DNA of 35,442 nucleotides from a virus. Positions within the stretch are counted from its first letter, which is position 1. The number at the start of each line of letters is the position of its first letter. The DNA lies in the UHGV virus genome UHGV-0072042; one strand, written 5' to 3'. Below, piece by piece: positions 8-34,696 of the stretch. The position numbers and the translations under genes are program-made. Below the pieces are notes generated by a model. The model saw nothing but the letters and a program-made list of their open reading frames with translations, ran no database searches and had not been told where the DNA came from.

Positions 8-42
8 GCACATTTGCCGCCCGACCAAGAACGCAAATGTGC
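8..42 (-). terminator. Perfect 10-bp inverted repeat GCACATTTGC/GCAAATGTGC with a 15-nt spacer, preceded on + by A7 (so followed by T7 on the minus strand). Candidate minus-strand intrinsic terminator or operator upstream of int.
   Basis: Seen directly: arms at 8-17 and 33-42, A-run at 1-7. No U-run follows on the + strand. Confidence 0.35.
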
Positions 43-138
43 AAAGAGCTACGGTAAAGTAGGTCTATTTGTTGTACCCTATTTTACCATCTCGAAATCC
101 GCTGTACAACCGAACAAACGTACGAAAGGAAAGATAAA

Positions 139-1345
139 GATGGCAAAAAAAGAAATTGATAAACGAATTAAAAAGTATTTAACAAAAAAAGGCGAAGAAA
201 AATATCAGTTTAGTCTGTACTTAGGAGTTGATCCGCTAACAGGAAAAAAAAGAAAAACGACAAGACGAGGTTTTAGTACCCCACTAGCCGCTGAGAGAGC
301 TTTAAAAAGATTGGAGGCAGATATACAGGAAAAAGGACTGCAAGCTTCTACAGCTCAAAAGAGCAAGAAATTCGAATATGTTTACGGCTTATGGTTTGAA
401 AATTATAAAAAGACAGTTAAAGAAAGCACTTGGTCCTCCACCAAACAAATTTTTGACACACACATCTTAAAAGTGTTTGGAGATAAGTTCATTGACAAAA
501 TAGACGTTTTTTTCTGTCAAGAAGCAGTAAACACTTGGTCCGATAGCCATCCTAAAATTTTTAAGAAAATAAAAAATTACACATCTAATGTTTTTGATTA
601 CGCTGCTTCTTTACAAATCATAACTAGCAACCCTATGAAATTAGTTTCTGTTCCACGCGGAGAAGCTCTAGATATCGAAGATAAAAATATCGAATTTTAT
701 ACTAAAGAAGAATTAATCGAATTTTTAGAAGCAATAAGAAACGATGATGATGAAAGATATTTATTCTTTTCTCTATTGGCTTTTACAGGTATAAGAAAAG
801 GAGAAGCTTTTGCACTGACCTGGTCGGATATTGACTTTAAGAGCAAAACACTCAATATTAATAAAACTGTAACAAGAGGATATCAAGGAAGATTGATCGT
901 AAATACTCCTAAATCAAAATCTGGAAAAAGAAAAATTTATCTAGACAATGATTTGATCAGTTTATTGAGAAAGTATTATACAAAAAACAAAACGATCGTT
1001 ACAATCCAAAGCGAAAACTTAATTTTTCAACATGATGGTCTTCTCTATAATCCTACAGTTTCGCGTTCGTGGCTTAATGTCATATATAAGCATCATCCAG
1101 AATTAACTAAAAGAATCACCACTCATGGTTTTCGACATACTCATGCCTCTCTCCTTTTTGAATCAGGAGCCTCTTTAAAAGATGTTCAGGAACGTTTAGG
1201 GCATGCAGATATTCAAACTACTTCAAACATTTACACTCATGTAACTGAAACTCAAAACAAAAAAGTTATCAATAATTTTGTAGCATTTATGAAGAATAGT
1301 ACTCAGGGGGAGTCAAAAGGGGAGTCAAAAAATATTTTGGGCTAA
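139..1345 (+). CDS. int: Tyrosine site-specific integrase (phage integrase family).
   Basis: C-terminal catalytic signature HGFRHTHASLL...LGHADIQTTSNIYTHV (R-H-R-Y). ATG at 139 preceded by GGAAAG; the ORF-track start at 14 is an upstream extension. Confidence 0.9.
1303..1326. repeat. Copy 1 of a 24-bp perfect direct repeat CAGGGGGAGTCAAAAGGGGAGTCA (internal tandem GGGGAGTCA x2). Lies inside the int 3' end, where it encodes GESKGESK.
   Basis: Exact match to 1547-1570. Putative Int arm-type site (P arm). Confidence 0.6.
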
Positions 1346-3659: not shown

Positions 3660-5867
3660 CTAAGATTCTATTTCCATAATGTGTAGCGTGTTTATTTGAG
3701 AAAAATCTAACTTCTTACCATCCTGAGTTTCAAATGTGATATTGAAGTACTCTCCTTTTTTTAACGCGAAAATTCTACTAAAGTGAAGCCCATGCTTCCA
3801 TTGCAATGCAGTTTCATTTATACCAACACCACCTGCGAAACCAATAGAACTAGTTTGGGCATCGTCTTTATAAAAAGTAATATAACCATACTGGCCAGCT
3901 GTTGATCCGCCAAACTGATATCTAACTAGCCCTTCTACCAACAAAGTACAGTCTCGATTAGCTGTGGCTTGCCAATTTCCAGAATTCCAAGTCAACGGAT
4001 TCTCTTTCATGGATCGATTCAATTTTGCTCCAATGGTGGTTGCTACTGGTCCAATAATCAACCGAGCTTTATTAGGAATACCAGTTTGTTCAGTTCCTGT
4101 TGAATGCCACGCTTCATAAGGCAACGGCTTTTCTTCTACCAGTACATTTTTTCCATTAACTAGAGGGGTTTCTAAAAAGTTCTTAGTTCCATCTACAGAT
4201 TGTGGTTCGGTTAAGCTCACCGAATCATTCAATCCTTTTTCAGTATATTCAGGTGTGATGTCCCAGCTGTAGTCGTTCGGATTGTTACTGTCTTTCAATC
4301 CTTCACCAAAGTATTTATATTGCTCAATATTCGGGGTTCGTGTGTCGCCTTTTTCAATCTTAAGCCAGTCAATTTGAACAGCGCCTTTAGTTGCACTAGG
4401 GTATTGATATATATTCAATGCTCTTACTGCACCTACGTCTATGTTAGCTTGCGTTACTGTAAATACTAGTTGCCATACGTCTGTCATACCTTCAACGGGC
4501 GTTAAGTTCCCAGCTTTAATTGTACCTTGCAAATCTAAGTAAGCTACAAAACTCTGAGTAGCTGGTTTAGTTGCTTTCATAGTGACTACATATTTCTGGT
4601 TAACTTTGTAGTCTTCTACATTGGCTTTTGAATAAACAGAGTATTCAGTTGTAGTAATAGGAAACTGCACATCTTTGTTTGCAATATTCTTACCCAAAGC
4701 CACCTTACTCAAATAATACGGCGCATCAAGTAAGTTAGGCTGGTACGGGGTGGCTGTTGAGCCTTCTTCGATTTTGATGTTATAGCCTAAATAGCATGTA
4801 CATGCACCAGCTGAATTATTAAACCACAAAGATATTCTAGACTCTTCTGTAGTCACAAAATTAGCAGCTGTAGTAAACGTAACGCTATAGGTCGTTCTAT
4901 TGGTACCCACAGGTTTGTTTATAAGCGCCCAAACAGACCTTACTTCTGTTCCCTCTCTTAATCGAAATTCACATTGTATCGCGCCAGATGGCACGTCTAT
5001 ATCCGCCCATATATCAACGCTGAGAGAATAAGTTTTGTTTGGTAACAATGTGCGGAGGTTTAATAGTTTTCCAGCCGGAGGCGCATCTGCAGTTCTTGTA
5101 ACTGCAATGTGGTCTACTCCATCTTTTGCGGTGTAACCAGTTTGAGAGCCATTGTTGTAAAAATCATTAAAACCTACATTAGGCGCAATATTAGGGTTCC
5201 CCGAATAATCATAGCCCCCGAAGTCGATGCTGTTACTGTACATCTTTTTCAGCTTGCCGAGGTCGCCGATTTGCTGATTCGTTTGATCAATACGGTCTTC
5301 AAGTATAGTTAGATCATTTTGCGCTGAACTAACATTTTTAGAAACAGCTTCAACTTTTGCTAGTGCCTCATTTACTGCATCTGTTGCTTCTTGTTTGACT
5401 CCATCAAGTAATTGTTGAAAGTCTGCAATAAAGTAGTCTGCTTTATCTTGCGCTAGTCCGTCGATTGCTGAACGCTTCATACGGAAGGTGAAGCCTAAGT
5501 TATCACTTGTTGATCCGTCTGGATACTCGATGTAAACATAAGCTTCCACCATACCGTTATAAGCTTTCATCGCTTCTGGCAAGATATATACGACCTGTCC
5601 ATTCAAGAAGCTTTTAGTGATGAGGTTTTTCGTGATAAAAGGGATTGGCTCTTTCGTGATCATTCCATCTACTTCATCATAGATAAACATCAACAAGCGC
5701 AAGTTAGCTCCTAGCAAGTCCGCCGGTGTGCCGTTCTGTTGTTCGACGTTGAACTCTAACGCTATTTGATTATCGTATGATTTAAATACAAGCCCCGTTG
5801 CTTGCAAATCGTAGTCTTTCGGCTGTGTAGGTACTTTGATAGAGCCTTTTTTGATGACATGCGCCAT
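3660..5867 (-). CDS. Receptor-binding / baseplate upper protein: BppU-like N-terminus, coiled-coil neck, C-terminal beta-rich (carbohydrate-binding-like) domains. Tail fibre.
   Basis: N-terminal MAHVIKKGSIKVPTQPKDYDLQATGLVFKSYDNQIALEFNV resembles phage BppU_N, followed by a coiled coil (AQNDLTILEDRIDQTNQQIGDLGKLKK). 735 aa, last large gene of the tail module. Confidence 0.7.
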   Translation of the reverse strand: MAHVIKKGSIKVPTQPKDYDLQATGLVFKSYDNQIALEFNVEQQNGTPADLLGANLRLLMFIYDEVDGMITKEPIPFITKNLITKSFLNGQVVYILPEAMKAYNGMVEAYVYIEYPDGSTSDNLGFTFRMKRSAIDGLAQDKADYFIADFQQLLDGVKQEATDAVNEALAKVEAVSKNVSSAQNDLTILEDRIDQTNQQIGDLGKLKKMYSNSIDFGGYDYSGNPNIAPNVGFNDFYNNGSQTGYTAKDGVDHIAVTRTADAPPAGKLLNLRTLLPNKTYSLSVDIWADIDVPSGAIQCEFRLREGTEVRSVWALINKPVGTNRTTYSVTFTTAANFVTTEESRISLWFNNSAGACTCYLGYNIKIEEGSTATPYQPNLLDAPYYLSKVALGKNIANKDVQFPITTTEYSVYSKANVEDYKVNQKYVVTMKATKPATQSFVAYLDLQGTIKAGNLTPVEGMTDVWQLVFTVTQANIDVGAVRALNIYQYPSATKGAVQIDWLKIEKGDTRTPNIEQYKYFGEGLKDSNNPNDYSWDITPEYTEKGLNDSVSLTEPQSVDGTKNFLETPLVNGKNVLVEEKPLPYEAWHSTGTEQTGIPNKARLIIGPVATTIGAKLNRSMKENPLTWNSGNWQATANRDCTLLVEGLVRYQFGGSTAGQYGYITFYKDDAQTSSIGFAGGVGINETALQWKHGLHFSRIFALKKGEYFNITFETQDGKKLDFSQINTLHIMEIES

Positions 5868-6649
5868 TATTTCACACCTTCAATCTTAGTTATTTTCACG
5901 TCGTTGCTCATTGCGGGATTGGAAACATTGCCGGATGAAATATCTAAAGCTCTGCCGTTTGACATCGTTATCTTTCGCGCTTCGATTGTCAGTTCAAACT
6001 CGATCAACGTCATTCCTGCACTCTCGTTCCATAAATTAGCTTTTGTAATCCGCGCGTATCTTTGACGTTTTATCTCTTCTATAAAGTCGCCGTCCCCGTC
6101 TGTGTAGTGGATACGAAGCGTTTGGTAACGGAAGGTGTCGTCTGGTAGATTGACCGATTGCCCTTTTCTTAATTCTCCCTCAAAAAGAACAGAAGTAGTG
6201 TAAACACGCCGCCAACCTAGTGAATTATAACCTTCTACCGGGTCGCTGTTATGTGTCATTTTGATGTAAATTTCGCCGCTATAACGAGCAAAAGCAACGA
6301 TTAATTTCCTCAAATCGTGATCCGCGAATACCATCATTTCAACAAAACTATCATCTTCGATTCCGCCGGGGTTGTTCGCTCCCCAGCCGGCTTTAGTCGC
6401 GTATTTGCCGGGCGGAATGTCTAAAATGTTTGGATATTTTTGTGGCAACTTATAATCGCGTAACCAACGCCCACGCGCTTGCATAACTGTTTCTGGTGTA
6501 GCAAAGCCCGCGTTGCTTTCAGTAGCTAGGACGTGCGCGTCGTGATCCGAGCCGTCGTAATGGATAGCCGCTTGACGCAATAACCATTTCACAGCCTCTT
6601 CATAACTCATTTCTTCAAAAATATTTGGTTTGCTTTGAAAATCTAACAT
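5867..6649 (-). CDS. Tail/baseplate hypothetical protein (260 aa).
   Basis: Position within the tail module. No recognisable motif. Confidence 0.5.
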   Translation of the reverse strand: MLDFQSKPNIFEEMSYEEAVKWLLRQAAIHYDGSDHDAHVLATESNAGFATPETVMQARGRWLRDYKLPQKYPNILDIPPGKYATKAGWGANNPGGIEDDSFVEMMVFADHDLRKLIVAFARYSGEIYIKMTHNSDPVEGYNSLGWRRVYTTSVLFEGELRKGQSVNLPDDTFRYQTLRIHYTDGDGDFIEEIKRQRYARITKANLWNESAGMTLIEFELTIEARKITMSNGRALDISSGNVSNPAMSNDVKITKIEGVK

Positions 6650-6665
6650 TTAATTGTTCACCGCC

Positions 6666-8384
6666 TTAATAGTTATAAGTGAAGTCTTTCGCGCGTCCTA
6701 CGCCTTTACTTGTCACTTTTCTCGTTGCTGTGTCAACTTCTATTTTGTAAAACGCTAATTCGTCCGGCGTGTCTACTTGGCTAGCTGTTTGAGAAAAACC
6801 AACGTCACATAAAATCATTTTTACTGTTCCGAACGTGTCTTCTAGTTGTTGATGCCAATGTCCGCAGAAATAACCTACCACAACGCCGGCGCCTTTCGTG
6901 TTCATTGCGAAAGTTTTCGTTCCACTGAATAAGTCGTCATTTGGTTGCCCTAAGTCGCCCCAGTTAATAGTTACTGGACTTCCAGATTTAAAACCTTCTA
7001 CCAACGCGCTAATCATGTTGATATTGCGAACATTAGCACTAGCTAAACGTAAAGGTGTATGCCCTACTAATACCACGTGATAGTTTCTCGGAACGTTTAC
7101 CAACCATTCCCCGAAGGTGTTGATTTGTTTAGCGCTGAAAGCTCCCTGTGTTTCATCGCTGTAACCGTCCGCGTACTTGTCGCCTATGCCGCCTTCATAA
7201 TAATCACAAGTATCAAAACGGTAAATCGCTACATTTTTATTTGGGAATAACGCGCCTCCATATAGGTCGTTCCAATACTCTTCAAAGTCAGCGTTGCATA
7301 ACATTCCTTTTCGTTTGCGCCACGCAGGATCAAAACAAGCGTCGTGGTTTCCTTTACAGATAATAACCGGTTTCTCTTGCCCTGCTACTGCTGCATTAGT
7401 AAAGCGTTTGAGCGTACTTAACATAGAATGTCGCGCGCTCCATTCGTCGATAATGCCTATATCATTACCGAGCGAGCCAAGTCCGCCGTCGATATTGTCT
7501 CCGCCGTAAATCATCACATCTGTTTTGTTCCCTAATTTTTGAAATTGAGGGATTGCGCGCCAATGTCTTAAATAATAAGCATCTTTGTAACCGACGCCAT
7601 CTATACGCAAGTTGTGATTATCTACGTGAATGTCTGTAATGAAAGAAAAGTTAAATTTGCTGTTATTAACACTGTTGACAACCGTATTCAAATTGCGCGG
7701 CACTAGGTCAACGTATTTCATCGTGTCGTAATCAAAAAAGCGTGTTGTTTCTCTAATCTGTGAGCTGCCGACTGGCACTTGGTATTTTTGGTTTATACGA
7801 TCAGCTAATGATTCGTAGTCGCCTTTAGCTTCATTCAGAATGTTAATGATCGTACCACCTGGATCGATATTTTCCAGTATTTCACGATTATCTTCTAACC
7901 ACTGCTCCCAGTCATTTTTGCCCTGATCCATGTAATCTTTGAATTTTCTTAGCAAATCCTCAAAGGTCCACACATATCCAGAGTCACGTAACTGGCTTCT
8001 AGATATTCCAGAAATGACTCGATAGGTAAAATCCTGTGTGCTAAATTGTTCACTCCAAGTTCCATCACCTTTAAGTGATCGGAAACTGAAATGTGCGGTG
8101 TTTTCACCACCCCATTGCCAGTCAGGCTCGCTCAACGTGTAAACAAGCCTTGCCTGTGCTGGACTGTATTCCTGTACTTTTTGTTCAACAGGTTGGTTTT
8201 CGCCAAATTTTGTTGTATTAATAAAAAATGGCACTAGGCCATCGAATGTTTTTAGTTTGCCATGTTCCACCACTTCAACAACGAACTTTTGGGTTAAAAC
8301 ATCCCCTTGCCGAATTCGAACCAAATTTATTCCGTTATTTGGTTCGGTGGTGGATAGGACCATTTTATGCTGCGTTTCTGCCAC
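6666..8384 (-). CDS. Tail protein with a calcineurin-like metallophosphoesterase domain.
   Basis: Motifs in order: FITDIHVD (D-x-H), YGGDNID (GDxxD), CKGNHD (GNH[DE]), VVLVGHTP (GH), CGHWH (GHxH). Likely GTG start at 8384 after AGGAGG plus a 7-nt spacer; the ATG at 8459 in the ORF track would overlap the upstream gene. Confidence 0.7.
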   Translation of the reverse strand: MAETQHKMVLSTTEPNNGINLVRIRQGDVLTQKFVVEVVEHGKLKTFDGLVPFFINTTKFGENQPVEQKVQEYSPAQARLVYTLSEPDWQWGGENTAHFSFRSLKGDGTWSEQFSTQDFTYRVISGISRSQLRDSGYVWTFEDLLRKFKDYMDQGKNDWEQWLEDNREILENIDPGGTIINILNEAKGDYESLADRINQKYQVPVGSSQIRETTRFFDYDTMKYVDLVPRNLNTVVNSVNNSKFNFSFITDIHVDNHNLRIDGVGYKDAYYLRHWRAIPQFQKLGNKTDVMIYGGDNIDGGLGSLGNDIGIIDEWSARHSMLSTLKRFTNAAVAGQEKPVIICKGNHDACFDPAWRKRKGMLCNADFEEYWNDLYGGALFPNKNVAIYRFDTCDYYEGGIGDKYADGYSDETQGAFSAKQINTFGEWLVNVPRNYHVVLVGHTPLRLASANVRNINMISALVEGFKSGSPVTINWGDLGQPNDDLFSGTKTFAMNTKGAGVVVGYFCGHWHQQLEDTFGTVKMILCDVGFSQTASQVDTPDELAFYKIEVDTATRKVTSKGVGRAKDFTYNY

Positions 8385-8397
8385 GACTATCCCTCCT

Positions 8398-11130
8398 TTA
8401 GAAATCGATGTAGTCTCTTGCATTATGGAAATGACCAGAAGAAGATGGATAAAATTCATCCATAAATTGGAAATGAAGATGTTCTCCAGTTGATGGTCCT
8501 GTTGTCCCCATCAGCCCAATTTGCTGACCAGCAGTTACTTTTTGACCTTTTGCAACATCCACACGGCTTTGATGTGCATAGCCTGTATACATTCCATCAG
8601 CGTGTTTGATCACTGTCCAATTTCCATACCAGTCAAAGTAATTTGCATCACCTGCAACAATCACTTCGCCGTCTGCTGATGCAAAAATAGGTGTATTAGG
8701 ATTTCCATTTACAAGGTCAATACCGTTATGAAATTCTTGCGCGCCTGTAATTGGAGAAGTGCGCCAGCCAAATTCGCTCGTCACTGTGATTGGATCCGCA
8801 ATTGGTTTTATATACCCTTTCGATGCAGGAATTTCTAAATCTTTGAACTTGTCATACCATTCTTGTGCCCATGTCGTCCGTTCTGGATGTGGATCACGTG
8901 GACGTTCAAAGTTAGCCACGAATGCTTGTGCTGCTGTGTTGATATCGGTCAGATTCATGAATTGTGTCCATGTGTAAGGATAAGCGCTAGTTGCGATCCA
9001 TTGACCATTTGGTGCATGCCACATCAACAATTTGAACTGCGCCGTGATCGTGTCTGGATCATCATTGATGCCAGCCTTTGTCATTAAATTGATCATGTAG
9101 ACACGTCCGCTAGTTGCGCCAGAAGAATCGGTCCATTGCCATACACCATAACCAAACCCAGGTGCGCCATTACCCTCATCGGCGGTTGGATTAGCATCTG
9201 ATTCTCCTTGAGCATTTCCAAGTAAGGCTGCAGCAGCTTGTTTAGTAAAGCCTGCACCTATAGCCATTGCCCAAATCTGCCAATAACGTTTATCCCGATC
9301 AGTAGTCACTTCTGGTGGATATTGTCCATTCCACCCGTTGTCGTTTCCTCCAGTATTGTCACCACCGTTTGTATCGATTTTAACGCCGTTCACATATAAT
9401 TCTTTGACATCTAGACGGCCATCTATGGTTATATTTCCTTCTGAAAATTTACCATCACCGTAAAGATTATATTTGCGCTTATCAGCAGTAACGTCTGCTG
9501 GAATTTGAAAAACAGGATTCCCTCGATCGCCGCCGTCCCCAGCGTTAATGGAAAAAATATAGTTTGGTTCTTTCCATACAGCAAACCCATTTATTTTTCC
9601 ACCTCCATAAGTTGCTACGATGGATCCAAGCGATTCTCCGTGAACATCGTCAAGCCCAGTTGAAATGACCTTTTTTTCAAAAGAAAGTTGTCCTCCTTCT
9701 GCCACTAATTGGAAATCTTTATCATCCAATGTCTTTAAAGCTACCCCTTGCACGAGAATACCTGAAAGAATTCCTGCTTTAATAAAATCAGCAACTATCT
9801 CTCCTTTAGAAGTCATTGCAATACCAAAGGGACCATTTACTCCATTATCTGAATATCCTAGACCGTTTAAATTCCAGCGCCACACACGCTTCGCATTCGC
9901 TACATTTGGAGTATCCATGATAAGAATCTCTGATGGAGCTTTTTCTGGACGAAAAACGACATGTCCGCCGGAATTGCCTGTGATCCATGCCGTTGCGTTC
10001 AACACATTTTGAACTAATGTTTCTGTTCGATTGTCAATTTTCTTTTTCAATTCTTGTGCTTGTGTATTTACTGTTGAAGTGTACAACGATAAATCATTAC
10101 CTAAAATAATATCCTTATATTTTCCAAGTGTTGGGAAATAAGTGTATTCGACCATACGCTCTTTTATCTCGATATCTAGCTCTTTCGCCCTCACATGAGC
10201 GACATCACCAAAGTGCAAAGACGCTAGCTCTTGATACATCTCACCGTATTCGAGTGTGTGTTCCAATGCCACCATACTGACTGTATGAGTAGCTTTTGGC
10301 TCATGGATACGATCATTGTCAAATAAGGTTTTGCCCCATTTGATCAATTCATCAACTGTTTTACAATCTCCGTTTTCACGTTTGGCAATACGTCGATTCT
10401 CGTTGGTTACTCCATCAATTTCTAAATAACCATATTCGATAGGTTCTTTGTCTTCATCATAATCGTTATCAGGAACACCGCCAACCAAATACAAACTATT
10501 GACAATTGATTCTTCATCAATTTCTTCTTCGATTGCTTCTAAATTGATGCCAAAATCAATCCGAAAACCATTATCTGATCCAATCTGTTTTACCAGTTTC
10601 AAATCATAGTTATCCATATCAAGTTCCGCGCTAGTCACGCCAGTCAAATTTTGATTACCGTTGTTTGAACCAATGATTGCTTCAACTGGCGCGACTTGTC
10701 TTGCTGTAAATTGGTGCGTTGTCCCTACATTCGAAAGATAGTTAAATTTTTGATCAAATGCCAAACTGTTTTTAAGATTGGTCATGATCTGAGACCCATT
10801 GCCGTTATCCGTAAACGACTTGACAATAAAGTTCTTATTGGCCATAAAACCAATATGCCGAGCTGTTACAGAAACGGAGGTCAAATTCTTTTTGACATTA
10901 TAAATTTCAAAATATTGCCACGAACCATCCGGCACCTTCGCTTTTATAAAATTTCCTTTTTTTAAATAAGAGCGATACTGTCCGCTTCTTGAATAGTTAC
11001 CATAAAAACGATATTGGCCATTCAGCACACGATTGATTTCTGGCAAATCTTCCCAATCAACTAATGACGCTCCGTTAACACTCAAATCATCTGGCATTTT
11101 TTTGTAAGCATAAATAAATTCTTGCGTCAC
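8398..11130 (-). CDS. Tail-associated lysin (Tal): N-terminal tail-tip domain, internal lysozyme-like domain, C-terminal M23 (LytM) peptidase.
   Basis: M23 signature HNGIDLV...DGEV...GNWTVIKHADGMYTGYAH...GEHLHFQF. Lysozyme-like block GAGFTKQAAAALLGNAQGESDANP...GFGYGVWQWTD. Follows Dit and TMP. Confidence 0.85.
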   Translation of the reverse strand: MTQEFIYAYKKMPDDLSVNGASLVDWEDLPEINRVLNGQYRFYGNYSRSGQYRSYLKKGNFIKAKVPDGSWQYFEIYNVKKNLTSVSVTARHIGFMANKNFIVKSFTDNGNGSQIMTNLKNSLAFDQKFNYLSNVGTTHQFTARQVAPVEAIIGSNNGNQNLTGVTSAELDMDNYDLKLVKQIGSDNGFRIDFGINLEAIEEEIDEESIVNSLYLVGGVPDNDYDEDKEPIEYGYLEIDGVTNENRRIAKRENGDCKTVDELIKWGKTLFDNDRIHEPKATHTVSMVALEHTLEYGEMYQELASLHFGDVAHVRAKELDIEIKERMVEYTYFPTLGKYKDIILGNDLSLYTSTVNTQAQELKKKIDNRTETLVQNVLNATAWITGNSGGHVVFRPEKAPSEILIMDTPNVANAKRVWRWNLNGLGYSDNGVNGPFGIAMTSKGEIVADFIKAGILSGILVQGVALKTLDDKDFQLVAEGGQLSFEKKVISTGLDDVHGESLGSIVATYGGGKINGFAVWKEPNYIFSINAGDGGDRGNPVFQIPADVTADKRKYNLYGDGKFSEGNITIDGRLDVKELYVNGVKIDTNGGDNTGGNDNGWNGQYPPEVTTDRDKRYWQIWAMAIGAGFTKQAAAALLGNAQGESDANPTADEGNGAPGFGYGVWQWTDSSGATSGRVYMINLMTKAGINDDPDTITAQFKLLMWHAPNGQWIATSAYPYTWTQFMNLTDINTAAQAFVANFERPRDPHPERTTWAQEWYDKFKDLEIPASKGYIKPIADPITVTSEFGWRTSPITGAQEFHNGIDLVNGNPNTPIFASADGEVIVAGDANYFDWYGNWTVIKHADGMYTGYAHQSRVDVAKGQKVTAGQQIGLMGTTGPSTGEHLHFQFMDEFYPSSSGHFHNARDYIDF

Positions 11131-11846
11131 AGATATACACTCCTATTCCAAAACCGCACTTCTTTAAATTTTCCGGATATTTTTACCTGATTCCATTCAG
11201 GCTGCAATACTGGCCAATCACCACGCGTAAATAAATTCAAACCTTCTTGTATTGCTTTTCCAAGCTGAGTATCAACCACGATTGTTGCAGCTAACGTATT
11301 AAGTATTGTTAGGCTTTTATCACCGACAGCGATCGTTATATCTCCTCCGTTCGATTCTATTTCCAGATAGGGATGTGCAATTTCGTCACCATGATCAAAA
11401 ATATCCATAACACTAGAATGAAAAATTTTAGGCGCTTCACCGATTTTTCTTTTGAGTGGCTGACAACGAAAAGTAACATCGAATGTATAAAAGAAGCCCC
11501 ACTCGTTTTCGAAAGGGACTTCTTTATCCATGCTGCAGATAGCCTCTAGATACTTGTCTGGATCATTATGTGTGATTAATTGGCTTTTACCAGTGAGCCA
11601 TCGTTTGACTTCTCTCAGTTTCGAATGTGGAATAGTGATCCCTTCTATTTCCAAATCAAAAGGTTCATAGTCATCAAACGTCTCCGTCAATTCTCCGCTT
11701 CGGCCCTGAATCGTGTAAGTTTCGTATCGCTTGTTCGGCATAATATCTGGAAGCTCTGCCTCAATGATGCAATTCATATCAATTACTGCATTCCGATTTT
11801 TCCAAATAAAATTTGGTTCATCTGGATTCATAAATTGTCGACTCAA
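11127..11846 (-). CDS. Distal tail protein (Dit, siphovirus tail family protein).
   Basis: Size 239 aa. Position immediately after TMP and before Tal. Confidence 0.65.
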   Translation of the reverse strand: MSRQFMNPDEPNFIWKNRNAVIDMNCIIEAELPDIMPNKRYETYTIQGRSGELTETFDDYEPFDLEIEGITIPHSKLREVKRWLTGKSQLITHNDPDKYLEAICSMDKEVPFENEWGFFYTFDVTFRCQPLKRKIGEAPKIFHSSVMDIFDHGDEIAHPYLEIESNGGDITIAVGDKSLTILNTLAATIVVDTQLGKAIQEGLNLFTRGDWPVLQPEWNQVKISGKFKEVRFWNRSVYL

Positions 11847-14152
11847 ATAGGAACACCTCCCAAATCACGAATAGCCTGTTTGTTTGCTTTAGCAAATTTA
11901 CGATTCATACGATCTAACTCAGATGGATTGTTTGCATCGACTTTGCCAATGTGTATATGCTGTTCAATGCTACCTCCGGAAACTCTTCCACTGATCCCTT
12001 TGCGTTTTTCTTCGTCTGATAATGGAGTAACTGTGGTTTTACCATTCTTGGCAGTCAGTAACTCAGGTCCAGCTTCACCAACAATTGCTTGCCCATTGAT
12101 TAGATGACCACCTTGTGCTAAATAAGGGATTTTTGATATAGAGAATGACTTGCCACCTATGCCGGGTATCCATTTTGGTATCTTTATATTATTCAATCCA
12201 CCAATAAATCCATTGATCAATCCAATCATGGCATTAATAGGAGCTTTCCCTACAGCAACAATACCATCAAAAATACCTCCAAAAATATCAACTAGACCTT
12301 GCCATGCTTTTGACCAATTCCCTGTAAATACTCCAGTGATAAAATCTAGAAAACCACTGAAAATTCGTTTTCCAGCATTATAAAAATTATTGAAATTTGC
12401 TATAACACCATCGAAAAATCCACCAAAATAACCACTTAAAAAATTAAATATTTCAACAGCTACATCTGAAACACCTTTGAAGAAAGAATTCACTCCATCA
12501 TGAAACCATTTAACGTTATTATATGCCCAAATTAGTCCAGTAACTAATGCGCCAATAGCTATAACTGCTAATGCAAACCAGCCTCCCGACATTCCAAATA
12601 AACCAGCAAGTCCTTGCCAAACTCCTATAAAACTTTTAACTCCCCCAACGATTTTTGTAACAGATCCCATAAGTGAACCAAGAACGATTAGTACTGGTCC
12701 AACTGCTGCCGCTATACCAGCAATTGTTATGATCCAATTCTTTGTATCTTGATCTAGAGACCCCCACCATTTAGAGAATTCCTGTAATAAGGAAGTTGCT
12801 TTTTCAAAAAAAGGCAAAAGGCTTACTTGGACTGCTTCACCTACGTCAGCCATTGCGAGTTTTGCATTGTTCATAGCTTGATCGGCTTGATCAATTGGGT
12901 CGAGAGTAGCATCGAATGTGTCTCCTACAGCTCCCCCACTTTCTCCAGCAGTTTTTGCTAAATCTTCCAGGTTCAAAGTACCTCTACGAATTGCATCGGC
13001 CATTCTAGGACCGCCTTTAGTCCCGAATACTTCTGCTGCTGCATTGATGGCTTCTGTTTCAGAACCTGCATTTTTTACCTTGTCTTGTAGTTCTTCTAGT
13101 CCTTGACTTAAAGATTTTCCGTCTTTCGCATAAGCCACTGTTGCTTTAGATAAACTACTTAAAGCTGCACTTGAGTCAACACCGCTTTGTTCAAATTGTC
13201 CAAGCAAAGTGACTCCTTCTCCGAAGCTCAATCCTAATTGTTTAATTTGAGGTGCGCCATCAATTGCTTTTTGCATCAAGTCGTCTACAGATTGACCAGT
13301 ATTCTGCGATGTTTTCGTTGTTACATCAAGGACAGAATTCAAGTCATCATATTCTAGTCCATAAGCATCAAGAGCTTGTCGAGCAGATATTGCTGATTGC
13401 GAAACATCTGTATCATTGATTTCAGCGTACTGTAGGAGATAATTGGTTGAATCTTCCAGTTTTTTATCCATGAATCCAAATTGTGTATTTACCTCACCAA
13501 TAGCTTCCCCAACCGTTTGTAAAGGTAAATGAGTATTTGAACCAACATTTTTGAAGGATTGAGAAAGCCTATCTGCTTGCTCGCCTGTCGCTCCTGTTTT
13601 AGTGATGATAGTATCGAGAGCTTCGTCAACTTCACCAAATGCTGCAAGTCCTGCTGCTCCTACCGCTACAATAGGCGCGGTTACTCCAACAGACATTTTT
13701 TCACCAACGCCTTTTACTTTCTCACCTGTTTCTTCGATTTTCTGGAGTTTTTTTGCTGTATCAACAGAAACGTCACCTTGTTCTTTAAGTGCATCGTTCG
13801 TCTGTTCTAATGCTGTACGAAGTTTATTTTCTCCGGTTTCAGAATTGAGTAATTGTTTATAAAGTTTTTCTGATTCAGCAGAATATTCACCGGTTTCTTT
13901 GACAGATTTTTCATATTCCTCTCTCAGCATTTGAGATCGTTGTTCAGCCAATCCTAATTGTTTTTCTAACTTTTGTTTAGCCGCTCGCAATTTTTCTGTT
14001 TGAGTTGCATCCTTGTCCATCGCAGACACTTGGTTTTTGTACTCGGCAGCGGCTAAGTTCATTTCTTTGTTGATTTCTTTGATTGTTTTCGAATAACTGA
14101 CTTCGCCATTCGTTTTAAAATTAAGAACGACATCAGATTCTTTACCAGCCAT
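11843..14152 (-). CDS. Tail tape measure protein.
   Basis: 769 aa. N-terminal coiled coil, central Gly-rich hydrophobic block (GIAAAVGPVLIVLGSLMGSV...), FxGxxxG-type repeats. Follows G/GT. Confidence 0.9.
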   Translation of the reverse strand: MAGKESDVVLNFKTNGEVSYSKTIKEINKEMNLAAAEYKNQVSAMDKDATQTEKLRAAKQKLEKQLGLAEQRSQMLREEYEKSVKETGEYSAESEKLYKQLLNSETGENKLRTALEQTNDALKEQGDVSVDTAKKLQKIEETGEKVKGVGEKMSVGVTAPIVAVGAAGLAAFGEVDEALDTIITKTGATGEQADRLSQSFKNVGSNTHLPLQTVGEAIGEVNTQFGFMDKKLEDSTNYLLQYAEINDTDVSQSAISARQALDAYGLEYDDLNSVLDVTTKTSQNTGQSVDDLMQKAIDGAPQIKQLGLSFGEGVTLLGQFEQSGVDSSAALSSLSKATVAYAKDGKSLSQGLEELQDKVKNAGSETEAINAAAEVFGTKGGPRMADAIRRGTLNLEDLAKTAGESGGAVGDTFDATLDPIDQADQAMNNAKLAMADVGEAVQVSLLPFFEKATSLLQEFSKWWGSLDQDTKNWIITIAGIAAAVGPVLIVLGSLMGSVTKIVGGVKSFIGVWQGLAGLFGMSGGWFALAVIAIGALVTGLIWAYNNVKWFHDGVNSFFKGVSDVAVEIFNFLSGYFGGFFDGVIANFNNFYNAGKRIFSGFLDFITGVFTGNWSKAWQGLVDIFGGIFDGIVAVGKAPINAMIGLINGFIGGLNNIKIPKWIPGIGGKSFSISKIPYLAQGGHLINGQAIVGEAGPELLTAKNGKTTVTPLSDEEKRKGISGRVSGGSIEQHIHIGKVDANNPSELDRMNRKFAKANKQAIRDLGGVPI

Positions 14153-33856: not shown

Positions 33857-34696
33857 ATGCCAAGAAAACCATTATCAGAAGAAGATAAAAAAGCTCGCTC
33901 CATTATCGCTAACAATTTAAAAAAAATTACGCATGGCTACACAAGAGCACAATTGTCAGATATGACAGGTATTCCTGTTACGACGCTATCGGGATATTTT
34001 ACTGAAAAATCAACTATCAGTATGGAAAACGCTGAATTAATAGCTAAAGCTTTTAATGTTGATAAATCTGATATAGATCCAAGATATTCCAGAGAATACA
34101 ATTATTATGATTTAAAGAAAGAAGTTTTAGATGAATTACAGGAAAACAATAAAAGTTTCGTTGCTGATAAATTTGTAGAGTTAGCAGAAAAAGCAAATGC
34201 AGCAGGGATGACTTTGAACAGAACTAAAACTGATAGAGGAAACATTATGACAGTTCTATCAAGTGATATTCAAGAATATAACTTTTTTGACACTTCTGTT
34301 GCTGCCGGCATACCTTCTTCAGTCGAAGCTTTTGATCAAGACCATATTGAGCAAATTGCTATTCCTGATTATGCCATGGGAAAATATGCAGGATATCAAG
34401 ATGTATTTTTTACTAAAATAAATGGAGATTCCATGAATAACGTTATTCCTGACGGATCATTAATTGCTGTAAAGAAAATAGAGAGCTGTGATGAGTTAAA
34501 AGATGGAGATATAGTAGTCTTTAGCAACGATAACGAATTTTCTGTAAAAAGATATATAAATGATCAACAAAATAATCGCATCATTTTTAGACCTGATTCT
34601 TCTAACATTTCTTTCACTGATATTGTGGTTAATTATGATGATACTAAATACGTTCAAATTTATGGGAAAGTCGTTGTATATATTGTCCAACTATAA
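33857..34696 (+). CDS. cI: cI-like repressor: XRE HTH plus S24 LexA-like autopeptidase.
   Basis: N-terminal HTH. AAG-IP cleavage-site-like sequence. GDSM (Ser) and VKR (Lys) dyad. Confidence 0.9.
   Translation: MPRKPLSEEDKKARSIIANNLKKITHGYTRAQLSDMTGIPVTTLSGYFTEKSTISMENAELIAKAFNVDKSDIDPRYSREYNYYDLKKEVLDELQENNKSFVADKFVELAEKANAAGMTLNRTKTDRGNIMTVLSSDIQEYNFFDTSVAAGIPSSVEAFDQDHIEQIAIPDYAMGKYAGYQDVFFTKINGDSMNNVIPDGSLIAVKKIESCDELKDGDIVVFSNDNEFSVKRYINDQQNNRIIFRPDSSNISFTDIVVNYDDTKYVQIYGKVVVYIVQL

Follow-up and report, generated by a model that had tools for sequence, protein, structure and literature searches.

Why would the tail module of a phage encode a protein with the complete motif set of a calcineurin-type metallophosphoesterase (MPE), and on what would such a protein act? 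The question is raised by a gene in the UHGV virus genome UHGV-0072042, examined here as a window comprising the whole analysed stretch of 35,442 nucleotides. The explanation that best joins the observations takes the gene product to be a protein at the periphery of the baseplate in a temperate Enterococcus siphophage, in which a BppU anchor, an enzyme domain and a separately encoded partner act jointly; this reading is held with slightly more confidence than doubt. The partner is p260, a fibre-tip or receptor-binding-protein-like (RBP-like) product. The coordinates of all features are collected in Table 1.

An earlier note on this DNA had correctly delimited the gene to positions 6666-8384 but had left out its strand, and it also missed both the BppU anchor and the co-inherited 260-aa RBP-like partner. 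The gene is read from the minus strand and encodes 572 aa plus a stop codon (6668-6666), a plus-strand reading of the same interval being rejected since its translation is riddled with stops. The mechanical open reading frame spans 6666..8459, but the ATG at 8459 was discarded because it would entail a 62-nt overlap with Tal and has no ribosome-binding site. The preferred start is the GTG at 8384-8382, which agrees with where the vB_ElaS_B1578 homologue is annotated to begin and with the start of TP901-1 ORF48. The Shine-Dalgarno sequence AAGGAGGG shares one base (8398) with the TAA stop codon of Tal (8400-8398). An alternative ATG at 8423 gives a 585-aa form, present in some database entries. 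The BppU-MPE protein matches phrog_7158 over its full length (E 2e-144), and its Enterococcus homologues are 29-95% identical to it.

Table 1. Features of the BppU-MPE locus and of its tail module (positions in the window)
Feature	Position	Strand	Basis or remark
BppU-MPE gene	6666..8384	-	ORF list; Pfam BppU_N plus Metallophos; phrog_7158; Enterococcus homologues
Shine-Dalgarno AAGGAGGG	8391..8398	-	read from sequence; 6-nt spacer to GTG start
BppU anchor, aa 1-181: N-terminal Ig-like domain plus predicted helical linker	7842..8384	-	phmmer, Foldseek
C-terminal MPE domain, ~aa 240-572	6669..7667	-	PF00149, AF2 model, Foldseek, profile
Motif I, D251-I-H253	7626..7634	-	D and H each in 90/93 representatives
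Motif II, G295-D296-N-I-D299	7488..7502	-	D296 in 89/93; D299 variable (D/N/H/E and others)
Motif III, G345-N346-H347-D348	7341..7352	-	N346 in 92/93, H347 in 91/93
Motif IV, G441-H442	7059..7064	-	H442 in 93/93
Motif V, G508-H509-W-H511	6852..6863	-	H509 in 93/93, H511 in 92/93
p260, 260 aa, fibre-tip/RBP-like	5867..6649	-	directly downstream of MPE gene; Idefix gp19, FibL, Foldseek
735-aa second fibre protein gene	3660..5867	-	own BppU_N-like N-terminus; phrog_10054
Exchangeable cassette (MPE domain plus p260), approximate	5850..7950	-	sliding-window nucleotide identity
Tal, tail-associated lysin	8398..11130	-	Pfam Prophage_tail, Phage_lysozyme2, Peptidase_M23
Dit	11127-11846		between TMP and Tal
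TMP	11843-14152		upstream in tail module

The seat of the enzyme on the virion is accounted for by its N-terminal BppU anchor. The protein matches Pfam BppU_N (PF10651, E 1.2e-16), and by phmmer its residues 4-181 align with residues 2-179 of TP901-1 ORF48 (4v96) at 43% identity (E 1.7e-43). The crystal entry 3uh8 is recovered both by phmmer (E 2e-23) and by Foldseek (TM 0.92, rmsd 1.8 Å). Homology extends as far as residue 179 of ORF48, through the linker region that in TP901-1 forms the coiled coil of the trimer; helices are modelled at 141-197. Since the alignment to the 299-aa ORF48 ends at residue ~179 and the MPE domain makes up the remainder, the protein is a BppU-anchored chimera and not a full BppU orthologue. 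Its gene comes after TMP, Dit and Tal, as in siphophage BppU tail modules, which bears out the tail-module position that had been claimed for it, with Tal upstream and fibre or RBP-like genes downstream. The second of these downstream genes, which shares one base of its start with the p260 stop, encodes the 735-aa protein. This protein carries a BppU_N match of its own (aa 27-158, E 2e-7), and its counterpart in vB_ElaS_B1578 bears the name 'lower tail fiber protein'.

The cargo of the anchor varies. Sister proteins whose N-terminus is 83-89% identical have a polysaccharide deacetylase or a pectate-lyase beta-helix joined to it, and a BppU-GDPD fusion has been reported in Enterococcus phage 9183 (PMC10194240). 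Phage ATCCB has the MPE domain as part of a 1121-aa fusion protein at the Tal position. Such domain swapping on a shared BppU anchor suggests the modularity typical of tail enzymes.

The earlier claim of a complete and ordered MPE motif set was borne out, all five motifs being located in the 572-aa product (DxH, GDxxD, GNH[D/E], H and GHxH). Pfam PF00149 (Metallophos) scores 31.6 bits over aa 247-512, its curated cut-off being 21.5 (E 2.9e-7), and is matched at profile positions 4-190 of 191. An exhaustive search yielded 98 MPE clusters, 93 of whose representatives were taken into the Pfam scan, and PF00149 also scores in 65 of these 93. The seven metal ligands (D251, H253, D296, N346, H442, H509 and H511) are all kept in 89 of the 93 representatives, which span 19-55% identity; the set is incomplete in four, of which three are N-truncated fragments and the fourth has a D-to-E change. 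The motif match is not due to chance, because the Pfam score exceeds its cut-off, the Foldseek probability to solved enzymes is 1.0 and the ligands are so widely kept. Retention of the DHDNHHH ligand set across such divergence suggests that the active site is under selection, and from its sequence the domain is probably two-metal-binding and catalytically competent. It is C-terminal in the 98 matches that the exhaustive search gave, where almost every alignment reaches the last residue of the protein, and it terminates here at the nearly invariant Tyr572, which, with Y375, D379, R386, D394, Q420 and N454, belongs to the phage MPE family's own conserved positions. The BppU-MPE protein has neither a GDPD match (PF03009) in Pfam at E <= 0.01 nor a PhoD-like match (PF09423) in Pfam or NCBIfam, and NCBIfam has no family for the MPE protein or for p260.

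The MPE domain does not travel by itself. A p260 homologue stands immediately 3' of the MPE gene in 75/75 viral loci, and likewise in phig1e and L088; Enterococcus podophages and Lactobacillus phage phig1e are thus among the carriers of this arrangement. p260 is absent from the compared BppU loci that lack an MPE domain, and in ATCCB, the most distant phage member, none was detected, the downstream 'tail fiber' being not detectably p260-like. The protein is 30% identical to Idefix gp19 (E 3e-31), and its profile matches, by hmmsearch, the C-terminus of 80alpha FibL (residues 451-605, E 2e-7). Its structure model, built from a 6-sequence alignment at a pLDDT of 62 (below 50 in the N-terminal 60 residues), retrieves 9euf_8, 9euf_5 and 5m9f by Foldseek (E 9e-9 to 5e-7). 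A conserved N-terminal segment with invariant H30, H39, G48 and P52 probably docks on a putative trimer of the MPE domain, a contact to which the linkage of the two genes points.

The linkage extends to sequence divergence. Identity matrices of the MPE domain and of p260 correlate with r = 0.987, a value inflated by many near-identical prophages, and give identical 8-cluster partitions, while the correlation with the protein's own BppU N-terminus reaches only r = 0.28. In sliding windows, nucleotide identity to L029 and L050 is >=0.9 outside the cassette and ~0.5 inside, and the pattern is reversed in the comparison with L024. On the left the breakpoint is placed between 7950 and 7650, at ~codons 145-245 of the BppU-MPE gene, and on the right at or just past the start of the 735-aa gene. 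MPE domain and p260 are thus exchanged as one cassette, and their constant co-inheritance suggests that the two probably bind and cleave cell-wall sugars joined by phosphate.

The same linkage could be read differently, with the MPE domain acting as a structural adaptor only, a rigid platform for p260 trimers whose metal site is kept for folding or stability and not for a catalysis of consequence to infection. The domain occupies the exact position of the BppL-binding domain of TP901-1 BppU, it is tightly co-inherited with an RBP-like protein, and the BppU-like N-termini of 80alpha have been described as generic ring-forming attachment modules (PMC7048315). A structural role, however, seldom retains seven ligands and the catalytic His of GNHD/E at 19-55% identity; sister proteins on the same anchor bear bona fide enzyme families; and stand-alone bacterial relatives, which have no phage partner, keep the same metal site. 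A purely structural function is therefore considered unlikely, and an enzymatic one is preferred.

What the enzyme would cleave is approached through its fold. The AF2 model of the MPE domain has a pLDDT of 90-98 over the core strands; several loops near the site (258-268, 303-311 and 399-411) fall below 50. Structure prediction, proposed by the earlier note as a check, sets the modelled domain beside solved metallophosphoesterases, with a Foldseek probability of 1.0 to Rv0805, GpdQ, Mre11, PolD-DP1, PptH and LpxH, all of the alpha-beta-beta-alpha sandwich class. Rv0805 (E 3e-10) and GpdQ (E 1e-8) come ahead of Mre11, PolD and LpxH. Profile searches against the PDB give 2nxf, a dimetal phosphatase (3e-9), and GpdQ (5e-5), with weaker matches to SMPDL3 and to purple acid phosphatases, relatives of the latter appearing only at E ~1e-3. 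The MPE superfamily includes nucleases, nucleotidases, protein phosphatases and lipid pyrophosphatases, and neighbours in fold or profile at 12-13% identity do not fix the substrate.

The genomic setting of bacterial relatives adds to this picture. One stand-alone relative lies beside GH38, GH76 and rhamnosidase genes, and another near a sugar ABC transporter, a HAD sugar phosphatase, a sulfatase and a GH2 gene; an Exo_endo_phos gene is also found among the neighbours. Glycan-locus context is therefore seen in two bacterial relatives, the contexts of P0120 and P0143 being uninformative.

Activity on another extracellular substrate, such as the DNA of the biofilm matrix or surface nucleotides and cyclic nucleotides, would suit the top fold neighbour Rv0805, a cyclic-nucleotide phosphodiesterase, as well as the matches to the nucleases Mre11, SbcD and PolD-DP1. 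The Mre11-type matches, however, fall behind Rv0805 and GpdQ in strength and cover the shared core only; eight cassette types diversifying together with an RBP-like partner fit strain-variable surface glycans and not DNA or nucleotides; and bacterial relatives are located in glycan loci. This alternative is judged quite unlikely. Because Rv0805 is the top fold match, an anti-defence cyclic-nucleotide phosphodiesterase delivered into the cell was considered too; for a protein that sits peripherally on a BppU anchor and co-varies with an RBP-like partner, this was judged unlikely.

A third possibility is that the domain cleaves a pyrophosphate or a phosphomonoester (of CDP-alcohol or ADP-ribose type, in lipid-linked precursors or at terminal glycan phosphates), so that the receptor would be modified and not depolymerised. 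The best sequence-profile match in the PDB, 2nxf, is a 'putative dimetal phosphatase', a homologue of the ADP-ribose/CDP-alcohol diphosphatase family; LpxH and PptH are among the fold neighbours, and a HAD sugar phosphatase and an Exo_endo_phos gene adjoin bacterial relatives. Yet 2nxf is only remotely similar (E 3e-9, 34 bits), a virion has no access to soluble nucleotide-sugar substrates, which are found inside the cell, and the co-varying RBP-like partner is explained no better than by cleavage of a polymer. Such a specificity is regarded as improbable.

The preferred reading, which appears somewhat more credible than not as to both activity and substrate, is that the virion carries a 'bind-and-cut' phosphodiesterase whose targets are teichoic-acid-like wall polymers. 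A phosphodiesterase active on phosphodiester-linked wall polymers would fit the phosphodiesterase fold neighbours, the carbohydrate-active cargo of sister proteins, the glycan loci and the chemistry of EPA. Among teichoic-acid-degrading enzymes, PhoD has a metallophosphatase-type active site. PhoD of B. subtilis is described as an endolytic teichoicase, a non-GDPD phosphodiesterase implicated in wall teichoic acid breakdown (PMC7086022). The EPA decorations are surface-exposed ribitol-phosphate teichoic acids joined by phosphodiesters (PMC7188991), and adsorption of phage Idefix requires the genes for rhamnopolysaccharide side chains (PMC6356687). In the literature on phage metallophosphoesterase tail proteins, no functional study or enzymology of any family member was found, and the papers on Idefix and SHEF14 do not discuss the MPE gene.

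By analogy with TP901-1 BppU and with FibL/FibU of 80alpha, the BppU anchor would form a ring around the distal tail, and the MPE domain would take the place of the C-terminal domain that holds the receptor protein in TP901-1, where it would act together with p260. The latter would bind the surface glycopolymer, while the MPE domain would hydrolyse its phosphodiester bonds, whether within teichoic-acid-like repeats or where a phosphodiester links the decorations to the rhamnan. Hydrolysis would thin the polyanionic layer and let the Tal lysins reach the peptidoglycan, and the allelic MPE plus p260 cassettes would determine which strains can be attacked. A bolder and more tentative proposal, for which the odds are rated somewhat below even, is that MPE and p260 constitute a previously unrecognised two-component recognition device of Lactobacillales phages: a teichoicase or EPA-decoration depolymerase docked to its own receptor-binding tip, moving in the manner of a serotype cassette between BppU anchors of siphophages, collar fibres of podophages and Tal proteins, and acting as a main determinant of strain range in Enterococcus.

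The earlier note had called such a domain uncommon. This is true overall, the domain being found in 59 of 50,697 phage records and in 98 clusters among 1.84 billion representatives, but not within Enterococcus, where it is commonplace: MPE clusters of this genus hold 300-570 member sequences, and the domain occurs in the matched small (~18-19 kb) Enterococcus podophages and in many E. faecium prophages. Several records already label MPE proteins 'calcineurin-like phosphoesterase', 'phosphodiesterase' or 'phosphohydrolase'. In other records MPE or p260 genes go under the names 'minor head protein' and 'minor capsid protein', gpB, the homologue in phig1e, was submitted as a capsid (structural) protein, and one paper places a phage 'metallophosphatase' under auxiliary metabolism. 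The domain was thus already annotated in databases; the two-gene cassette with p260 is defined here.

The receptors of enterococcal phages are still little known (PMC6356687). E. faecium and E. faecalis, including VRE, are targets of phage therapy, and the small podophages carrying the MPE and p260 pair are of the type studied against Enterococcus infections. If recognition proceeds by phosphodiester cleavage of EPA or teichoic-acid decorations, host range should be predictable from the cassette type, phages could be retargeted rationally by exchanging cassettes, and the isolated enzyme could serve as a tool to dissect or strip enterococcal surface polymers. On the bolder proposal above, the two-component device would add a new catalytic class, beside GDPD enzymes and glycosidases, to the phage depolymerases that attack Gram-positive wall polymers.

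Among solved structures, the best neighbours of the MPE domain are both binuclear enzymes, GpdQ, a glycerophosphodiesterase of Enterobacter aerogenes, and Rv0805 of M. tuberculosis (Foldseek E 3e-10 to 4e-8, target TM 0.6-0.69). GpdQ is matched by sequence profile as well, with motifs I-III and V aligned. Both share only 12-13% identity with the phage domain, which is ~100 residues larger through long insertions, and both are soluble cellular enzymes, whereas the phage protein is a predicted virion component.

The closest architectural relative is TP901-1 BppU (ORF48; PDB 4V96, 3UH8), which has the homologous Ig-like domain, with homology running on into the helical linker, and whose gene likewise follows Dit and Tal and precedes a gene for a receptor-binding-type protein. 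The C-terminal domain of the TP901-1 protein (residues ~180-299), which lacks enzymatic motifs and serves to bind BppL trimers, is replaced here by a 330-aa MPE domain. p260 is unrelated by sequence to TP901-1 BppL and resembles instead the staphylococcal fibre-tip domains, its C-terminal beta-sandwich being homologous to those of FibL (gp62) of 80alpha, gp144 of phage K (PDB 5M9F) and the phi812 RBPs (PDB 9EUF). Unlike these proteins, to which it is 10-17% identical, p260 is free-standing, with neither a BppU_N anchor nor a coiled-coil shaft, and has its distinct conserved N-terminal segment.

In the podophages, Idefix gp20, described as a 'putative virion protein with calcineurin-like phosphoesterase domain', contains a homologous MPE domain with all motifs kept; the corresponding proteins are labelled 'phosphodiesterase' in ZEF1, 'phosphohydrolase' in SHEF14 and 'putative collar fiber protein' in 1E1. 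Podophage MPE domains are 29-32% identical to the one studied here (E 4e-41; BFVD Foldseek E 3e-34), and in Enterococcus podophages a p260 homologue lies directly downstream. In Idefix the MPE gene comes just after the collar (connector/adaptor) genes and before the tail protein gene. This position, the collar-fibre label in 1E1, the capsid entry for phig1e gpB and the gene order after TMP, Dit and Tal in the window all speak for a place in the virion. The anchor of the podophage proteins is not BppU_N, their first ~160 residues being unrelated and presumably forming a collar-attachment stem, and Enterococcus podophages have no second BppU-type fibre. The 735-aa protein has no similarity to Idefix gp18; therefore only the MPE domain and p260 are common to the two groups of phages.

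Lastly, the BppU-GDPD proteins, exemplified by that of phage 9183, and the GP-PDE neck-passage proteins of the lactococcal 936 group similarly combine a BppU_N-type anchor with a C-terminal metal-dependent phosphodiesterase for which a teichoic-acid target is presumed, and BppU-GDPD proteins also occur in tail modules with an endopeptidase Tal (PMC10194240). A dedicated survey of tail lysins in 506 enterococcal phage genomes, GDPD proteins included, does not list the MPE type and mentions no co-inherited RBP-like partner (PMC10194240). GDPD is a TIM barrel (PF03009) with a His/His/Glu/Glu/Asp catalytic set, whereas the MPE domain is a calcineurin-like alpha-beta-beta-alpha sandwich (PF00149), so the resemblance of the catalytic domains is one of functional analogy only; at the level of the anchor, the GP-PDE protein of Lactococcus phage 340 shares its N-terminal fold with the BppU-MPE protein.

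The BppU-MPE gene lies on the minus strand, where a mechanical ORF spans 6666..8459; a plus-strand reading of 6666-8384 was rejected, its translation being riddled with stops. Its likely start codon is GTG 8384-8382, with AAGGAGGG six bases before it and the TAA stop of the upstream gene just ahead. This start agrees with that annotated for the homologue in Enterococcus phage vB_ElaS_B1578 and corresponds to residue 2 of TP901-1 ORF48 (BppU). The product, of 572 aa, joins a BppU-type anchor (Pfam BppU_N, PF10651, aa 6-150) to a metallophosphoesterase (MPE) domain that makes up its C-terminal 330 residues. The full MPE motif set reported in the earlier note is real and not due to chance, since the five motifs occur in canonical order and Pfam Metallophos (PF00149) matches aa 247-512 with 31.6 bits (cut-off 21.5 bits). 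The tail-module placing proposed there also holds: the gene stands between that of the tail-associated lysin (Tal) and the fibre-like genes for p260, a 260-aa RBP-like protein, and for a 735-aa protein.

Features of the BppU-MPE gene, its surroundings and its stand-alone bacterial relatives (nt positions in the window unless a locus is named; aa, residues of the product)
Feature	Position	Strand	Remarks
Tape measure	11843-14152	-	
Dit	11127-11846	-	
Tal	8398-11130	-	Prophage_tail and two different peptidoglycan hydrolase domains, Phage_lysozyme2 (aa 615-762) and Peptidase_M23 (aa 800-890); C-terminal 510 residues ~90% conserved among loci with differing Tal N-terminal part
BppU-MPE gene	6666-8384	-	directly after Tal in tail-module order
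MPE motif I	D251-I-H253	-	read from product
MPE motif II	G295-D296-N-I-D299	-	read from product
MPE motif III	G345-N346-H347-D348	-	read from product
MPE motif IV	G441-H442	-	read from product
MPE motif V	G508-H509-W-H511	-	read from product
p260	5867-6649	-	260 aa, after BppU-MPE gene; no Pfam match
735-aa gene	3660-5867	-	after p260; BppU_N-like N-terminus; labelled 'lower tail fiber', N-terminal 200 residues often conserved, remainder mosaic
148-aa gene, holin, Amidase_5 endolysin		-	in this order after the 735-aa gene
Tyrosine integrase	14-1345	+	adjoins lysis cassette, one window end
HTH/S24 repressor	33857-34696	+	opposite window end
Bacterial MPE relatives	L085 5001-6080; L086 5001-6068		stand-alone, 355-359 aa; each clusters with a DUF4964/DUF5127/GtaA_6_Hairpin protein, glycoside hydrolases and phosphatases

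The window represents a temperate Enterococcus siphophage, whose remaining genes encode capsid, portal, terminase, RecT, antirepressor, S24 repressor and integrase. It looks like a complete, circularly permuted genome of ~35.4 kb rather than a host-flanked prophage. Its nearest company in nucleotide and protein searches is E. faecium prophages and phages. Since the 735-aa protein has a BppU_N-like N-terminus of its own, the baseplate probably carries two concentric BppU-type rings, by analogy with FibL and FibU of 80alpha.

The anchor is well defined. Residues 4-181 align with residues 2-179 of ORF48 (E 1.7e-43), and in the AF2 model of the protein (mean pLDDT 78.5) the N-domain superimposes on that of ORF48 with a TM-score of 0.92 and an rmsd of 1.8 Å. 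It also matches the BppU-like N-domains of the 80alpha and NF5 baseplates; the 80alpha study describes this N-domain fold as optimised for ring formation, the rings serving to fasten diverse structures to tails (PMC7048315). Homology to ORF48 ends where the BppL-binding C-terminal domain of the latter starts, which makes the protein a chimera on a BppU anchor and not a complete orthologue of BppU.

The MPE domain is a swappable tail-enzyme module. Two related proteins in the same post-Tal position share the anchor (83-89% identity) and carry, instead of MPE, a polysaccharide deacetylase (P0037) or a pectate-lyase beta-helix (P0039). A survey of enterococcal tail lysins lists a BppU-GDPD fusion in phage 9183 and no metallophosphoesterase (PMC10194240). 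Conversely, the MPE domain occurs on other scaffolds. Idefix gp20 (29% identical, E 4e-41), labelled 'putative virion protein with calcineurin-like phosphoesterase domain', is encoded after the collar (connector/adaptor) genes and ahead of a tail protein gene; gpB of Lactobacillus phage phig1e was deposited as a capsid (structural) protein; and in Lactobacillus phage ATCCB (L089, 3655-7017) the Tal position is taken by a 1121-aa protein that ends in the domain, with its motifs intact, and is followed by a 'tail fiber' with no detectable likeness to p260.

Behind the BppU matches, Foldseek against the PDB retrieves Rv0805 (E 3e-10) and the glycerophosphodiesterase GpdQ (E 1e-8), then Mre11, PolD-DP1, PptH and LpxH. 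The sequence profile matches 2nxf, a 'putative dimetal phosphatase' (3e-9), GpdQ (5e-5) and, more weakly, purple acid phosphatases and SMPDL3 enzymes, in alignments that include motifs I-III and V. When 1.84 billion cluster representatives were scanned exhaustively with HMMER, no more than 98 relatives emerged, in which the domain is C-terminal and nearly always aligned to the last residue of the protein. Among 93 representatives (19-55% identity), 28 have a recognisable BppU_N, the other N-termini being without domain assignment. At the seven metal-ligand positions, 89 of these 93 show D-H-D-N-H-H-H; of the other four, three are fragments truncated at the N-terminus and one has D->E. The GNHD motif retains its catalytic His in 91. 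Such strict retention argues for a predicted active enzyme. The model is confident in the motif-bearing strands (pLDDT 90-98), with several adjacent loops below 50.

p260 is the obligate partner gene of the MPE domain. A homologue starts at most a few tens of bases from the MPE stop in all 75 MPE-bearing viral loci recovered, and none was found in four loci with a BppU_N protein lacking MPE, nor behind the variants with deacetylase or pectate lyase, which are followed by membrane/holin-like ORFs. The pairing extends to Idefix, whose gp19, encoded directly after the MPE gene, is 30% identical to p260 (E 3e-31), to phig1e (hhalign probability 97%, hmmsearch 5e-14) and to another siphophage contig (1e-41). 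In sliding-window nucleotide comparisons with sister prophages, Tal and the anchor show an identity of at least 0.9, which drops to ~0.5 between ~7950 and ~7650 (codons ~145-245) and rises again near 5850, either where the 735-aa gene starts or soon afterwards; in a third prophage the pattern is reversed. The pairwise-identity matrices of MPE and p260 correlate with r = 0.987, a value inflated by redundant prophages, compared with only 0.28 for MPE and the N-terminus of its own protein. No such inflation affects the reciprocal mosaics or the partitions into 8 clusters at 70%, which are identical for the two. Together these data establish the MPE domain plus p260 as the unit of exchange. A purely structural platform would agree with the position of MPE and its partner gene, and is nevertheless unlikely, as it clashes with the strict retention of the catalytic set and with bacterial relatives that lack a partner.

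In the domain alignment, these two stand-alone relatives retain the conserved ligand residues; they may represent an uncharacterised glycan-phosphodiesterase family. One locus holds two GH38, GH76, a rhamnosidase and Exo_endo_phos, the other a sugar ABC transporter, a HAD sugar phosphatase, a sulfatase and GH2. For the viral domain, wall glycopolymer phosphodiesters are favoured as the putative substrate, because the solved enzymes closest in fold are phosphodiesterases, one of them a glycerophosphodiesterase, because the domains that replace one another on the shared anchor all target wall carbohydrates, and because of the glycan-utilisation setting of the bacterial relatives. Strain-variable surface glycans would, moreover, select for diversification of MPE and its RBP-like partner. 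A nuclease or nucleotide phosphodiesterase, as Rv0805 and Mre11 among the fold neighbours might suggest, is distinctly improbable, leaving both the cassette diversification and the glycan-locus relatives unexplained; a 2nxf-like pyrophosphatase or phosphomonoesterase is the least probable alternative. The phosphodiesterase PhoD of B. subtilis has an active site of the metallophosphatase type; the BppU-MPE protein is not a PhoD family member according to Pfam and NCBIfam. The wall-phosphodiester reading gains from this enzyme, which lies outside the GDPD family: PhoD is already implicated in the breakdown of wall teichoic acid and is described as an endolytic teichoicase (PMC7086022). The reading is further favoured by the exposed EPA decorations of E. 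faecalis, which are ribitol-phosphate teichoic acids phosphodiester-linked to rhamnan (PMC7188991), and by Idefix, a carrier of MPE and p260 whose adsorption requires rhamnopolysaccharide side-chain genes (PMC6356687).

The bare MPE observation is not new, since the annotation is already public and hundreds of near-identical prophage copies exist. Full-length homologues, from 95% down to 27% identity, bear the NCBI label 'BppU family phage baseplate upper protein' and, for one of them, the UniRef label 'Calcineurin-like phosph...'; in PHROGs the family is phrog_7158, annotated function unknown. The domain occurs in 59 of 50,697 records of a phage collection, all from Enterococcus, Lactobacillus and Latilactobacillus phages bar one unassigned 'Bacteriophage sp.' from human faeces and one 'Acinetobacter' record. 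The latter (PQ554527.1, 'Acinetobacter phage D2SVT') has an Enterococcus-type tail module with scores identical to vB_ElaS_B1578, so its host label is probably wrong or its sample contaminated. Many podophage records label MPE and p260 homologues 'minor capsid protein' or 'minor head protein', which looks like inheritance from the phig1e gpB 'capsid protein' (X90512.1 / X98106.1); gene position argues for tail/collar fibre components. One paper classes a phage metallophosphatase as auxiliary metabolism, and a literature search found none that treats the domain as a tail enzyme or tests it. The concept is unsurprising, but it can be put to a direct test and bears on host range in Enterococcus phage therapy.

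Built from 20 homologues, a profile of p260 hits 80alpha FibL in its C-terminal domain (residues 451-605, E 2e-7). The AF2 model of p260 is a beta-sandwich of modest quality, its pLDDT being 62 and falling under 50 in the first 60 residues. It matches phi812 baseplate chains (E 9e-9 and 1e-7) and the C-terminal domains of phage K gp144 (5e-7), with a weaker match to the T7 fibre tip. Within the low-confidence N-terminus (residues 30-52), the family keeps an invariant H30...H39...G48-F-x-x-P52, which could be a metal-binding or docking motif. The last 87 residues of P0177, a 314-aa right-handed beta-helix protein of E. faecium, are 92% identical to the p260 C-terminus (window 5870-6130), a chimera which suggests that this sub-domain is itself shufflable. 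p260 has no anchor domain. On the simplest reading, from linkage and analogy, it would dock on the MPE domain and supply binding specificity, much as BppL of TP901-1 docks on the BppU C-domain. Conceptually, the BppU-MPE protein is a putative BppU-anchored, virion-borne wall-polymer enzyme with a predicted catalytic fold other than the known GDPD type and with a strictly co-inherited RBP-like partner.
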